This document shows positions 5,369 to 10,023 of a stretch of DNA of 24,000 nucleotides, piece by piece; the first letter of the stretch is position 1; each line of letters begins with the position of its first letter. The notes below the pieces were generated by a model. It did not search any database and had not been told where the DNA came from. It worked only from the letters and a program-made list of their open reading frames with translations. Where the stretch lies: the NCBI GenBank assembly GCA_029550525.1, contig JAKPHF010000027.1:23839-47838 (forward strand). Reading direction: 5' to 3'. Origin of the DNA: Planctomycetota bacterium (GTDB lineage Bacteria; Planctomycetota; Phycisphaerae; UBA1845; PWPN01). Made by a program: the position numbers and the translations under genes.

Positions 5369-6973
5369 ATGGATCGAAGCGCAAGGACGCGCTGCCTGTC
5401 TGATCGCGGCACAAAGCTGGAATACCATCCGCTCGGAGGCAACGGCAACGGGCATGGTAACGGCAACGGGGGCAAGGTGATCGTGCGCGCCGTGTCCGAG
5501 ACTCGCCAGCACGACGGTTCCGCGGCCGGCTCGCTTGACACGCCCGCGGAGTGGACGGCTCGCGGCAAGCGGGTGCATCTGATCGGCATCGGCGGGTGCG
5601 GCATGTCCGGGGCGGCGGCCGTCCTGCAGCGGCGCGGCGCCGTGGTCAGCGGCTCGGATCGCGTCGACTCGGCCGTGCTCCAGCGGCTGGCCGAGCAGGG
5701 CGTGAACGTGTTCATCGGCCAGAAGGGCGAGAACGTCCCCGCGTCCTGCGACTTGGTCGTTTGCTCCGCGGCGGTTAAGGAGTCCAATCCCGAACTGCAG
5801 GCCGCTCGACGCAACGGTGCCCGCGTCGTCAAATACGCTCAGTTGCTCGGGCTGCTCATGCGGGAGTTCGAAGGTGTGGCCATCGCCGGCACGCACGGCA
5901 AGAGCACCACGTCGGCCATGGTCAGCTACGTCCTGCGCGAGGTAGGTCTCGACCCCTCGTTCGTCATCGGGGCGGGTGTCGAACAACTCGGCGGTGGCTC
6001 CGGTGTCGGTTCGGGCCGGCAGTTCGTCGTCGAGGCCTGCGAGTACGATCGCTCGTTCCACAACCTCAGGCCGCGGATCGCCACCATTCTCAACATCGAG
6101 GAAGATCACCTCGATTACTATCGCGATCTCGACGAAATCATCGAGTCGTTCCGGACGTTCGCCCAACTGCTGCCGGCCGATGGTCTGCTGGTGGTCAACG
6201 GCGATGACCGCAACGCCATGCGGGCGGCCGCGGACATTCCCGCCGAGGTCCAGACCTTCGGGTTCGGCGGTGCGGCCGATTGGCAGCCGCGCATCCTGGA
6301 GACTGTGCAGGGCCGCTTCCGCTTCGAGGTGCTCTTCCGCGGCCAGCGAGTGGCCGAGATCATGATGGGCATTCCGGGCCGCCACAACGTGAGCAACGCT
6401 CTGGCGGCGATGGCTGTCTTCGCGCGATGCGGCGTGGATCTGCAAGCGGCGGCCGAGGCGGTCGGCCGGTTCCGCGGGGCGCAGCGCCGGCTCACGTTGC
6501 GCGGCACTGAGGCGGGCGTGCACGTCGTGGACGATTACGCCCATCACCCGACCGAGATTCAGGTCACGCTCAAGGCCGCTCGCGAGTTCTACACGCCGCG
6601 CAAGATGTTCGTGGTCTTCCAGCCGCACCAGCATTCGCGAACGCGGTTCTTGCTCAACGACTTTGCCCGCAGCTTTTCGGCGGCCGACGTCGTCGTCGTG
6701 CCGGACATCTATTTCGTGCGGGACAGTGAGTCCGAACGGGAGTTGGTGGCCGCCACCGACCTGGTGAACGAGATTCACCGCAACGGCGGCGAGGCCCGGT
6801 ACGAGCCGGATTTCGGTCGGATTGTGGCCATGCTGTGCGACGAGGTGCAGCCGGGCGATCTGGTGATCACCATGGGCGCGGGCAACGTTTGGCAGATCGC
6901 CGACAGCCTGCTGGCCGAATTGAAGGAAAAGAACGCCCAGCCGCGGAATATTACCCCCGCGACGGCGGGCTAG
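5369..6973 (+). CDS. murC: UDP-N-acetylmuramate--L-alanine ligase MurC (start codon uncertain)
   Basis: Motifs: VHLIGIGGCGMSGAA, AIAGTHGKSTTSAM, EACEYDRSF, NIEEDHLDYY, GRHNVSNALAA, DDYAHHPTEI. The conserved core begins about 65 codons after the ATG at 5369. The extension contains GGNGNGHGNGNGG, encoded by ggcaac-type repeats at 5439-5471. A GTG at 5477 is an alternative start. Confidence 0.9.
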   Translation: MDRSARTRCLSDRGTKLEYHPLGGNGNGHGNGNGGKVIVRAVSETRQHDGSAAGSLDTPAEWTARGKRVHLIGIGGCGMSGAAAVLQRRGAVVSGSDRVDSAVLQRLAEQGVNVFIGQKGENVPASCDLVVCSAAVKESNPELQAARRNGARVVKYAQLLGLLMREFEGVAIAGTHGKSTTSAMVSYVLREVGLDPSFVIGAGVEQLGGGSGVGSGRQFVVEACEYDRSFHNLRPRIATILNIEEDHLDYYRDLDEIIESFRTFAQLLPADGLLVVNGDDRNAMRAAADIPAEVQTFGFGGAADWQPRILETVQGRFRFEVLFRGQRVAEIMMGIPGRHNVSNALAAMAVFARCGVDLQAAAEAVGRFRGAQRRLTLRGTEAGVHVVDDYAHHPTEIQVTLKAAREFYTPRKMFVVFQPHQHSRTRFLLNDFARSFSAADVVVVPDIYFVRDSESERELVAATDLVNEIHRNGGEARYEPDFGRIVAMLCDEVQPGDLVITMGAGNVWQIADSLLAELKEKNAQPRNITPATAG

Positions 6974-7060: not shown

Positions 7061-9082
7061 ATGAACGAGCTCCGCTCATATGCGTTTCTCGCCGATGAGG
7101 CGGCAGTTGGTACGGTCGAGCGAGATCGACCGCTGGCGCCGCTGACGCGCTATCGCCTGGGGGGCCGGGCCGAGTGCCTCGTGCGCCCGCAGAATCTCGA
7201 GCAGCTCGCCGAGCTCATCAAACGCTGCCGTCGCGAGAACGTGCCGGTGCGGATCCTGGGCGGCGGGGCGAACCTGCTGGTAGACGACGACGGCGTGGAC
7301 GGCGTCGTGGTGCGGCTCGACGCGCCGTTCTTCAAGCAGGTCGAGTACTGGGAGGCCGAGGGCTCGGGCAACGGCACCCCGCAGGGACGCGGACCGGTGC
7401 GGGTGCGCGCCGGTGCCGGCGTGGACATGGCTCGGCTGACGCTCGCTTCCGTACGCCGAGGCTTGAGCGGGCTGGAGTGCATGGCCGGCATCCCCGGGAC
7501 GCTTGGCGGCTGCATCCGGATGAACGCGGGCGGCCGCTGGGGCGAAATCGGCAACGTCGTCCGCGAGGTCGTGGTCATCGATGCTGACGGTGAGCTCCGG
7601 ACGCTCGATCGCGAGCAGGTCGGCTTCAGCTATCGGCACACCCGGTTGGGCGACGCCGTCATCTGCTCGGCCACGCTCGAACTCATGCCCGGCGATCCGC
7701 AGGAGATCCAGGCTCGCTACCAGGAGATTTGGAACATCAAGCAGGCCGGTCAGCCGTTGGGTGCTCACAGTGCGGGTTGCGTGTTCAAGAACCCGCCGGG
7801 TGACAGTGCCGGCCGTCTCATCGATGCCGCCGGTCTCAAGAACCGCCAGGTGGGCGGGGCGTTGGTCTCGCCCGAGCATGCGAACTTCATCGTCGCCCGC
7901 GAGGGGGGAACGGCTGGCGACGTGCTCGACCTCATCGATCTCGTGCGGCGTACGGTTGCCGAGAAGTTCTCGGTCAATCTGGAGCTGGAGATCGAGGTAT
8001 GGCGCGGGCGCGGCAAGCGGCTGACCCCGGGTCCGCAAAGCGACCTGTCCGCCATCGAACCGTCAGCCGTCATTCCCGCCGGCAGGACGCCGGCCGCCAA
8101 CGAAACGGAGTCTTCCATGACGCGCCTTGCTCGTCAACCCGTGGCCAGGACGCCCGCGAAAGCCGAAACCCGACGGACGCTGGCCATCACCGTGCTGTCC
8201 GGTGGTCCCAGTAGTGAACGCGAGGTCAGCCTCAAGAGCGGCCGAGCCGTCGCGGCGGCGCTCGAGTCGCTCGGCCACCACGTGACGGTCTGCGACATCG
8301 CGCCCGACAAGCTCGACGCGCTGGAGATTCCGGCCGACCTGGTGTTCATCGCGCTGCACGGCGCGTTCGGCGAGGACGGGCGTGTGCAGAGTCTGCTCGA
8401 AGAACGCGGCATCCGCTACACCGGTTCGGGCGCGGCCGCTTCCGCGCTGGCCATGGACAAAGTGGCCACCAAGCGTCGATTCGTCGAAGCCGAAGTGCCC
8501 ACGCCCCAGTTCGAAGTGGTCACCGCTGCCGACATCGACCGAGTGGTGCAGACGTGGCAATTGCCGGTGGTGGCCAAGCCGATCGCCGAGGGCAGCAGTA
8601 TCGACATTCGGATCATCCGCGATGCCCAAACGCTGCGGTCCGAGCTCCAGCGGTTGACGGCTCGCTACGGCCAGTGCCTGCTCGAATCGTTCGTGGACGG
8701 ATACGAGTTGACCGTGGGCATCCTGGGCACACAGGCGTTGCCGCCCATCGAGATCCGCACCCGCCGCGAGTTCTACACTTACGAAGCCAAGTATCTCGAC
8801 GACGATACGGAGTATCGTTTCGATATCGACCTGCCGCCGGCGGTCCTGGCGGAGGTGCAGGCGCTGAGCGTTCGCGCTCACCAGGCCCTGGGGTGTCGGC
8901 ACTTCTCGCGGGTCGATTGGCTGGTGGACCGCCGGACGCATCAGCCGTACGCACTGGAGGTAAACACCATCCCCGGCTTTACCGACCACTCGCTTCTGCC
9001 CAAGGCGGCGGGTCGGGCGGGGCTGAGCTTCCCGCAGTTGTGCGAGCGCATCATCGAGCTGGCCTATGGCCAGAACGACTGA
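7061..9082 (+). CDS. murB/ddl: Single ORF encoding UDP-N-acetylenolpyruvoylglucosamine reductase (MurB, ~7061-8005), a linker (~8006-8170) and D-alanine--D-alanine ligase (Ddl, ~8171-9082)
   Basis: MurB part: VRILGGGANLLVDD, MAGIPGTLGGCIRMNAGG, SAGCVFKNPPG, SPEHANFIV. Ddl part: VLSGGPSSEREVSLKSG, FIALHGAFGEDGRVQSLLE, ASALAMDKVATK, EVNTIPGFTDHSLLPKAA. There is no in-frame stop between the two parts. I prefer the ATG at 7061; ATGs at 6989 and 7022 are alternatives. Confidence 0.85.
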   Translation: MNELRSYAFLADEAAVGTVERDRPLAPLTRYRLGGRAECLVRPQNLEQLAELIKRCRRENVPVRILGGGANLLVDDDGVDGVVVRLDAPFFKQVEYWEAEGSGNGTPQGRGPVRVRAGAGVDMARLTLASVRRGLSGLECMAGIPGTLGGCIRMNAGGRWGEIGNVVREVVVIDADGELRTLDREQVGFSYRHTRLGDAVICSATLELMPGDPQEIQARYQEIWNIKQAGQPLGAHSAGCVFKNPPGDSAGRLIDAAGLKNRQVGGALVSPEHANFIVAREGGTAGDVLDLIDLVRRTVAEKFSVNLELEIEVWRGRGKRLTPGPQSDLSAIEPSAVIPAGRTPAANETESSMTRLARQPVARTPAKAETRRTLAITVLSGGPSSEREVSLKSGRAVAAALESLGHHVTVCDIAPDKLDALEIPADLVFIALHGAFGEDGRVQSLLEERGIRYTGSGAAASALAMDKVATKRRFVEAEVPTPQFEVVTAADIDRVVQTWQLPVVAKPIAEGSSIDIRIIRDAQTLRSELQRLTARYGQCLLESFVDGYELTVGILGTQALPPIEIRTRREFYTYEAKYLDDDTEYRFDIDLPPAVLAEVQALSVRAHQALGCRHFSRVDWLVDRRTHQPYALEVNTIPGFTDHSLLPKAAGRAGLSFPQLCERIIELAYGQND

Positions 9083-9138: not shown

Positions 9139-10023
9139 ATGGGTGGAGAATCCTTGAGTCGCAAGGTCAAGAAAAAGCGAAAGTCCAGAGCGCAGGAACG
9201 CTCGCACGAACCGCGCCTTGCCGGATTCGGCCCGCTGTTGCCGGTGGCCGGCGTCTTGACGGTGATCGTGCTGAGCATCTGCGGCCTGGAGTGGCTGCGC
9301 GGCCAGGTGCTGTCGAATCCGAAGTACAACCCCGAGCCGAAGATTCAGCTCGAATATCTGCCCGGCTCGGAGTGGGTTCAGCAGGAAGGCTGGTTGCCTC
9401 GCATTCAGGCGTCCATCCGGCTGCCCGACAAACCCTACATGGACGACAAGCTGCTCGAAGAGGTGGCTCAGCAGGTGGCGGCCACCGGCTGGGTGCGCCG
9501 GGTGTTGCAGGTCGAGCGCGGGATGGACGGGACCATCCGCGTCTGCTGCGACTATCGCCGCCCGATCGCCATGGTGCTGACCAACCGTGGCAAGTACATC
9601 CCGGTGGACAAGGACGGTGTGCGGCTACCCGAGGAATATGAGCGAGTGGAGGCTGACTCGGGTTGGATGCGCATCCTGGGCGTGCAGACCGAGCCGCCGC
9701 CGGTCGGAGGCTCCTACGAGAAGTTCCGCGGCGAGAAATGCGACGGGGCACATGCCGTGCGACTCGCGTTTCTGCTGTTCAGCCAACCGGAGACGGGCGA
9801 CAAAATCACCGGTATCGACGTCTCGAACTGCAGCGATATCATGTTGTACACCCGCGACGGCGGGAAATTCCGGTGGGGTTCGGCTATCGGATGCGAGGTC
9901 GAGGAACCCGAGCCGGCCTATAAATTGCGGAACCTCGCGCTCACTCTCAGGACAAGCTCCCCTCAGGCCTGCGCCGACCTCACCGTTTATCGGAACGGGG
10001 TTCTGGTACACTCCGGGCCGTGA
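9139..10023 (+). CDS. ftsQ: Cell division protein FtsQ/DivIB-like (bitopic, POTRA-containing)
   Basis: Basic cytoplasmic tail (KVKKKRKSRAQER), one TM segment (FGPLLPVAGVLTVIVLSICGL), then a POTRA-like block (LLEEVAQQVAATGWVRRVLQVERGMDGTIRVCCDYRRPIAMV...YIPVDKDGVRLP). The C-terminal end (KLRNLALTL...ADLTVYRNGVLV) resembles the FtsQ beta domain. It sits in the canonical position after ddl. Confidence 0.7.
   Translation: MGGESLSRKVKKKRKSRAQERSHEPRLAGFGPLLPVAGVLTVIVLSICGLEWLRGQVLSNPKYNPEPKIQLEYLPGSEWVQQEGWLPRIQASIRLPDKPYMDDKLLEEVAQQVAATGWVRRVLQVERGMDGTIRVCCDYRRPIAMVLTNRGKYIPVDKDGVRLPEEYERVEADSGWMRILGVQTEPPPVGGSYEKFRGEKCDGAHAVRLAFLLFSQPETGDKITGIDVSNCSDIMLYTRDGGKFRWGSAIGCEVEEPEPAYKLRNLALTLRTSSPQACADLTVYRNGVLVHSGP

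Follow-up and report, generated by a model that had tools for sequence, protein, structure and literature searches.

A MurB-Ddl fusion gene in a Phycisphaerae dcw cluster, probably born by loss of the murB stop codon and still carrying the ddl start site

Fused Mur enzymes are cited in support of a cytoplasmic peptidoglycan-precursor complex and provide handles for structural studies. A survey of natural Mur chimeras describes MurE-MurF, MurC-Ddl, MurC-MurB, MurG-MurC, MurD-FtsW, and MraY-MurG, in forms with a linker and forms without one, and has no MurB-Ddl (PMC10214165). Papers focused on the Planctomycetes-Verrucomicrobia-Chlamydiae (PVC) superphylum mention only MurC-Ddl and MurB/C, the latter being essential (PMC12283558), and no MurB-Ddl. 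In the searchable literature we found no paper describing a MurB-Ddl fusion. Here we analyze a gene of this kind, murB-ddl, at positions 7061 to 9082 of a 24,000-nucleotide stretch of contig JAKPHF010000027.1 (Planctomycetota bacterium, assembly GCA_029550525.1), a stretch that we call the window. We conclude with good confidence that the gene is a real, young fusion in which murB lost its stop codon, the old spacer is now a linker, and the ancestral start of ddl was retained, with an effect that was probably near-neutral.

The initial annotation had read this segment as a single frame joining a complete MurB-like domain to a complete Ddl-like domain, and both an open-frame check and full-length matches to Pfam and NCBIfam models bear this out. 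The parts of the gene are as follows.

7061..9082, + strand: fused murB-ddl open reading frame (ORF), 673 amino acids plus stop, uninterrupted from ATG at 7061 to TGA at 9080-9082
7103..8002, + strand: MurB domain (UDP-N-acetylenolpyruvoylglucosamine reductase), residues 15 to 314, short type like Staphylococcus aureus 1hsk
8003..8173, + strand: linker, residues 315 to 371, 57 amino acids, predicted disordered
8107..8110, + strand: GGAG, the conserved Shine-Dalgarno (SD) sequence of ancestral ddl, kept inside the fused frame
8117..8119, + strand: in-frame ATG, the ancestral ddl start; 'MTRLARQ...' is homologous to the 'MTRL(A/V)(D/N)Q...' of separate ddl genes
8174..9067, + strand: Ddl domain (D-alanine--D-alanine ligase), residues 372 to 669

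Pfam finds FAD_binding_4 (PF01565, residues 38 to 182) and MurB_C (PF02873, residues 215 to 313) in the first half and Dala_Dala_lig_N (PF01820) and Dala_Dala_lig_C (PF07478, residues 483 to 666) in the second. The NCBIfam MurB equivalog PRK13905 is matched over its full length by residues 15 to 314 at 298.8 bits (cutoff, 259), and a second MurB model, TIGR00179, scores 189.4 bits (cutoff, 144.5). Likewise, the Ddl model PRK01372 is matched over its full length by residues 372 to 669 at 333.3 bits (cutoff, 243), with TIGR01205 at 276.1 bits (cutoff, 245.65). Against the Protein Data Bank (PDB), the MurB half matched 4pyt_A (E = 1.2e-54, residues 14 to 313), and the Ddl half matched DdlA 8evx_A (E = 9.5e-61) and Escherichia coli DdlB 1iov (E = 1.6e-59). 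The fused ORF has no Mur_ligase domains by Pfam and so does not correspond to the bifunctional MurC-Ddl model PRK14573; the partner of Ddl here is not MurC, since murC is a separate gene upstream. Alternative in-frame starts lie upstream at ATG 7022 (686 amino acids, the JGI call) and GTG 6989.

The murB-ddl frame is not an assembly error. Gene calls on at least 33 contigs (ENA, NCBI, Logan, and JGI) give an identical fused protein. When we compared 13 contigs from these four sources, assembled from different samples with different assemblers, the 2022-nucleotide coding sequence was identical to that of the window in 12 of the 13 independent assemblies, and the remaining one carried a single synonymous single-nucleotide polymorphism (SNP). 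Five further fused proteins (P0003 to P0007; 72 to 76% identity, 671 to 703 amino acids) come from other metagenomes and have the same synteny. At the sequence level, the gene qualifies as a natural Mur-pathway chimera, because one unbroken ORF encodes two complete enzymes and this arrangement is both reproducible and conserved between species.

In a tree of MurB plus Ddl, the five relatives, the window, and the split genes of G001, a genome of the same genus, form a clade with 100/100 support. When the split genome G002, of the same genus, is added in a Ddl tree, the six fused forms group together (81/71) as sister to G001 plus G002, within a 99/96 clade. The simplest reading would be one fusion event inside a genus-level group, retained in all six known descendants. 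Synonymous divergence (dS) among the members of the fused clade is ∼1 to 1.8. The linkers of the six, counted from VW to MT, measure 36, 37, 38, 38, 38, and 64 codons, which requires at least three indels, all in frame. This pattern is suggestive of selection against breaking the frame, although it is not compelling.

Outside this sub-genus clade, the close relatives keep the two genes apart. Among 40 related genomes of the same genus, family, or order, those with both genes on one contig always have them adjacent with a stop between. Of about 90 loci that we classified in species-representative genomes, mostly Phycisphaerae plus other Planctomycetota, the window's was the only fused one, and the others were adjacent but separate. 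In the split plan, MurB ends a few to ∼25 residues past a conserved '...LE(L/I)E(V/I)W', and the murB stop is followed by a spacer of 50 to 200 nucleotides, a GGAG-like motif, 6 to 8 nucleotides, and the ATG of a ddl that begins 'MTRL(A/V)(D/N)Q...'. G001, G002, and other Phycisphaerae have orthologous genes (67 to 79% identity) in the same order and with the same ddl start motif as the window. The two same-genus genomes end murB with a stop, TGA in G001 and TAG right after '...DVWR' in G002, and in G001, ddl even lies in the reading frame of murB, as it does in the window. G002 had appeared fused from a tblastn match to residues 294 to 673; we rejected it because its translation shows murB ending '...DVWR*' and ddl in another frame.

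A missing stop in such a spacer is unremarkable in itself, because stops occur at a frequency of only 0.019 per codon in the GC-rich spacers of the relatives, which gives a chance of 0.49 that a 38-codon frame is open; 13 of 27 spacer frames from relatives are indeed open. Loss of a murB stop would accordingly run into ddl with a chance of about 1 in 6 (in frame times open). What goes beyond chance is the reproducibility across assemblies and the conservation in five further diverged sequences. Apart from the fused clade, we noted P0009 (372 amino acids, ENA; 56 to 59% identity), which runs from the C-terminal half of MurB through '...VWDQCRARQ...GVPLMTRLAERAA...' into Ddl. Its tail is degenerate and apparently frameshifted, and it may represent either an independent family-level in-frame read-through or an error-prone assembly.

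Three stretches make up the linker: what used to be the MurB tail, the intergenic spacer that once separated murB from ddl, and the ∼20-amino-acid N-terminal extension of Ddl in this family. The central part can be recognized as the old spacer because the GGAG and ATG are the ribosome-binding site and start codon of ancestral ddl. Its Pro/Ala/Thr/Ser-rich character, noted in the initial annotation, amounts to 47% of these four residues. We also reproduced the position of the GGAG 6 nucleotides before an in-frame ATG and the length of the Ddl that would start there, 321 amino acids. At the junction, the window reads '...ETESS-MTRLARQ...' over ACGGAGTCTTCCATGACG. Peptides specific to read-through in the fused chain would include LTPGPQSDLSAIEPSAVIPAGR and TPAANETESSMTR.

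The proposal that this site is a candidate start gains weight from the relatives, since the GGAG and ATG are the conserved SD sequence and start codon of their separate ddl genes. The motif ACGGAGT is unchanged in four fused sequences and one split sequence despite a dS of >1, and relatives from the same family and order carry GGAG-like motifs at this position. Inside the linker, neither ACGGAGT nor ATGAC varies, even at third codon positions, which argues for constraint on the nucleotides of a ribosome-binding site and not on the peptide. The ratio of nonsynonymous to synonymous divergence (dN/dS) is 0.31 to 1.72 in the linker up to the ATG, 0.14 to 0.20 in MurB, and 0.11 to 0.17 in Ddl. The SD context of ddl ranks with the strongest of the cluster; the start of murB lacks one. 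We found no internal promoter or terminator in the linker and no known or conserved cleavage motif.

The linker also contains a GC hairpin at 8078-8094 (GCCGGC-AGGAC-GCCGGC, with a purine-rich AGGA loop), 13 nucleotides upstream of the ddl SD sequence. P0004 (GCCGAC-CGGAG-GTCGGC) and the noncoding spacer of G001 (GGCGGGCA-AGGA-TGCCCGCC) have similar hairpins at the corresponding position. The apparent compensatory changes in these two made the hairpin a candidate conserved element, which we rejected: RNAalifold gave a 7-pair stem with only 2 covarying pairs, and its stability does not exceed that of shuffled sequences (z = -0.65).

We modeled the fusion with AlphaFold2 (AF2). A model from the six close fused sequences was unusable, with a predicted local distance difference test score (pLDDT) of 48, and an alignment of 31 fused sequences was used instead. 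In this model, the domains are confident, with pLDDT mostly 86 to 97 (about 86 to 97 in MurB); residues 318 to 370 fall below 50, and the predicted template modeling score (pTM) is 0.51. The model fits a protein whose two domains fold independently and are joined by a disordered tether. The catalytic and substrate-binding residues of E. coli DdlB are Glu15, Lys215/Tyr216, Arg255/Asp257, Glu270/Asn272, and Ser281. Their equivalents in the window, assigned by motif recognition and not by structural superposition, are E386, K577/Y578, R617/D619, E633/N635, and S644, all of them invariant in the 31 fused proteins, and the motifs EREVS, YEAKY, SRVDW, EVNTIPG, and HSLLP align to solved Ddl structures.

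The MurB general acid is reportedly a serine, Ser229 of E. coli in the motif ...AGS(V/F)FKNP..., as Benson, Walsh & Massey are said to have described in 1997. The window has AGCVFKNP, with Cys240 (7778-7780) at this position. Cysteine is found there in 62 of 75 fetched MurB loci, which include split Phycisphaerae, Victivallales fusions, and Verrucomicrobia MurC-MurB; serine is kept in Desulfuromonadales and most proteobacterial relatives, and one locus has glutamine. This distribution indicates that the cysteine is a lineage-wide variant of an essential gene that has nothing to do with the fusion, and Cys240 could plausibly act as the MurB proton donor. We found no paper commenting on a lineage-wide Ser-to-Cys substitution in MurB.

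Based on these comparisons, we propose that the ancestor had murB and ddl as adjacent, separately translated genes of a division and cell wall (dcw) operon, with a GC-rich spacer of roughly 100 nucleotides that by chance held no stop in the frame of murB. Once the murB stop was lost, ribosomes starting at murB would have read the old spacer, as a disordered linker of ∼55 amino acids, into ddl, yielding a MurB-linker-Ddl polypeptide of ∼73 kDa. With no stop after MurB, production of the 73-kDa chain should at least match that of MurB. The conserved SD sequence and ATG suggest that initiation at 8117 likely also makes a free 321-amino-acid Ddl, in which case the level of Ddl would equal or exceed that of MurB. 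On their flexible tether, the two domains probably work independently of each other. Ddl enzymes are dimers, and a tether of this length should let a fused chain dimerize either with another fused chain or with free Ddl. The fusion seems to be tolerated, or slightly favored, without being a mechanistic requirement.

The same pairing occurs well beyond the Phycisphaerae. Clustered at 50% identity, the best 150 matches of an exhaustive search of 1.84 billion representatives include at least 23 MurB-Ddl clusters. About 25 distant cluster representatives are collinear MurB-Ddl proteins of 613 to 770 amino acids, most with short connectors. In the order Victivallales, we sampled 61 genomes, and 53 of the 57 with a match have an uninterrupted full-length frame; all 13 Victivallales/Lentisphaeria loci that we fetched (13/13) are fused. 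In a 48-sequence tree, fused forms stand at eight separate places, at least four of them clearly independent. The clearest independent cases, which group with the split genes of their own lineages, are those of Phycisphaerae, Victivallales, Sphingomonadales, and Methylococcaceae, and the remaining places are two gammaproteobacterial lineages, a pair near Nitrospira, and one unplaced sequence. Such recurrent independent fusions fit simple stop loss between adjacent genes.

The initial annotation suggested tentatively that no MurB-Ddl fusion had been described. This holds for the searchable literature, where we found no paper and where the main survey lacks the pairing, but it does not extend to the sequences: the architecture is common in public databases, both order-wide in Victivallales and in the clusters counted above. 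It has not been annotated as a fusion there, since the public names of MurB-Ddl proteins are those of a single enzyme, either MurB or Ddl. The gene is an undescribed variant of the known Mur chimera class and not a new kind of system, and the pairing is widespread in databases. Also among the best 150 matches were seven representatives of ∼1030 to 1080 amino acids (P0170, P0177, P0189, P0191, P0192, P0202, and P0240) that match MurB and Ddl, with Ddl from about residue 750. The two that we checked by Pfam, P0170 and P0192, are complete MurC-MurB-Ddl triple fusions.

Other explanations of the locus have to be weighed against the young stop-loss fusion. Because the source is a metagenome-assembled genome, one might suspect a stop or frameshift missed between two ordinary genes; the agreement of the coding sequence across assemblies, down to one synonymous SNP, and the five diverged relatives that are likewise fused effectively refute this, and we regard its probability as practically nil. 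A different possibility is that the locus effectively makes two proteins, the fused chain being rare or quickly cleaved in the linker and functional Ddl coming almost entirely from the internal start. This would account for the conservation of the ancestral SD sequence and ATG by nucleotide, third codon positions included, for an SD context that beats the one at murB's own start, and for a long disordered linker, which is a plausible protease target. However, without a stop each ribosome that finishes MurB continues into Ddl, the linker has no recognizable cleavage motif, and the characterized MurC-Ddl and MurB/C act as intact fusions (PMC4803751), so that we judge a two-protein outcome very unlikely.

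Adaptive coupling would mean selection for a fixed MurB:Ddl stoichiometry or for proximity, e.g., in a cytoplasmic Mur-enzyme assembly, with recurrence reflecting the advantage. In the six descendants, the frame has survived three or more in-frame indels at a dS of >1, the fusion is fixed across the whole order Victivallales and has arisen repeatedly, MurC-MurB-Ddl triple fusions exist, and Mur chimeras have been argued to stabilize a Mur complex (PMC10214165). Yet the MurB and Ddl steps are nonconsecutive, G001, G002, and about 90 other related loci are split, and the linker is poorly conserved and predicted to be disordered, with no modeled interface (pTM, 0.51). Moreover, adjacency and the roughly 1-in-6 chance of an in-frame, open stop loss explain recurrence without any advantage, and the retained internal SD sequence and ATG suggest that separate Ddl is still needed. 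We therefore consider adaptive coupling unlikely. The broader version, in which recurrent MurB-Ddl fusion reflects functional or physical coupling in a Mur assembly and the window's clade is its earliest stage, with a long tether and an active internal start, seems to us similarly doubtful. The initial annotation's suggestion that the fusion hints at a Mur-enzyme complex is not sustained: murB and ddl are separate in the two nearest genomes of the same genus, constraint on the linker is weak and disorder is predicted for it, and the recurrence can be explained by simple stop loss between neighboring genes.

Some observations weigh against our own reading of a young fusion by stop loss. The exact stop-loss mutation cannot be reconstructed, the MurB tails being too diverged. 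Since a spacer of this kind is open about 50% of the time by chance and the six sequences are related, their retention of the frame is only suggestive of selection. Support for the monophyly of the fused forms is only moderate (81/71), and the concatenated tree does not resolve G001 from them, so a secondary resplitting in G001 may have occurred. The MurB activity of the fusion is assumed, because its general acid would be a cysteine and not a serine.

The fused gene sits in a Phycisphaerae dcw cluster with the gene order murF (partial)-mraY-ftsW-murG-murC-murB/ddl-ftsQ slot. Its immediate neighbors are as follows.

5369..6973, + strand: murC, a separate upstream gene with Pfam Mur_ligase, Mur_ligase_M, and Mur_ligase_C
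9139..10023, + strand: ORF occupying the ftsQ slot, with synteny kept in all fused and split relatives examined

The downstream order, with the ftsQ-slot ORF, is the same in loci L096, L097, and L099, and the ORF itself had no Pfam or NCBIfam match. In the longest MurC ORF, the Mur ligase domain is preceded by an N-terminal extension of ∼65 amino acids (5369-5570) that contains a GNGNGHGNGNGG low-complexity stretch. Gene callers place the start of murC differently, giving 504, 528, or 534 amino acids across assemblies. Farther upstream, at 2424-2466 of the window, ftsW directly follows mraY, with no murD between.

We found no second MurB in the genome, and PRK01372 gives only 155 and 115 bits, against its cutoff of 243, for two Ddl-like paralogs on contig C80; the fused gene, the sole MurB found, thus carries the genome's only bona fide MurB and Ddl. 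The C80 paralogs were considered as a replacement for Ddl and rejected, because they are far under the family cutoff and are linked to a KamA aminomutase. These tandem ATP-grasp genes (genome G000, locus L002, 316-3826, - strand) immediately follow a KamA-family 2,3-aminomutase gene and share 32 to 35% identity with the Ddl domain. Similar low-level Ddl-like paralogs occur in the related genomes G001, G004, G007, G019, G025, G029, G036, and G038. KamA and the tandem Ddl-like genes may form a beta-amino-acid ligation cassette.

The published catalogue of Mur chimeras lacks the MurB-Ddl pairing, which is nevertheless abundant in sequence databases. The Phycisphaerae case offers an evolutionary snapshot in which split sisters, a spacer turned linker, and an intact ancestral ribosome-binding site and start codon are found side by side. 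Because these features coexist, the birth of a bifunctional enzyme and the persistence of an internal start can be tested directly. The case also bears on how fused Mur enzymes are interpreted: where adjacency, a GC-rich, stop-poor spacer, and stop loss suffice repeatedly, fusion alone is weak evidence for a physical complex. The locus is valuable mainly as a fusion caught naturally at an early stage, and it gives a clean, if modest, picture of how a fusion enzyme originates.

Comparison with known systems places the gene among several relatives. MurE-MurF of Bordetella pertussis likewise joins adjacent dcw genes in one polypeptide, but it unites consecutive steps and has a rigid hydrophobic interface (PMC10214165). 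The Chlamydia trachomatis MurC-Ddl (McCoy & Maurelli 2005), as far as the papers citing it describe it (PMC4803751, PMC10214165), resembles the window's fusion in having Ddl at the C terminus, a dcw-type cluster, a PVC host, and nonconsecutive steps. Its N-terminal partner is MurC where the window has MurB, and, in the same accounts, the chlamydial fusion is old and its Ddl activity is reported to depend on fusion, whereas the window's appears young and keeps an internal ddl start. MurB/C (MurC-MurB) of Verrucomicrobium spinosum and other Verrucomicrobiota also places MurB in a natural chimera of a PVC bacterium (PMC4803751), and the Verrucomicrobia MurC-MurB has the same cysteine at the general-acid position. 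It differs in that its MurB is C terminal and fused to MurC, and in that it is conserved over whole orders and has been characterized experimentally (PMC4803751). The MurB-Ddl of Victivallales (Lentisphaerota) has the same domain order and dcw origin as the window's gene. It nevertheless has an independent origin (a separate 100/100 clade) and is old and fixed order-wide, where the window's fusion appears young. Most Victivallales connectors are ∼10 to 15 amino acids, with no internal Met in those examined; the window's clade, unlike them, has a linker of 55 to 90 amino acids that still holds the SD sequence and ATG of ddl.

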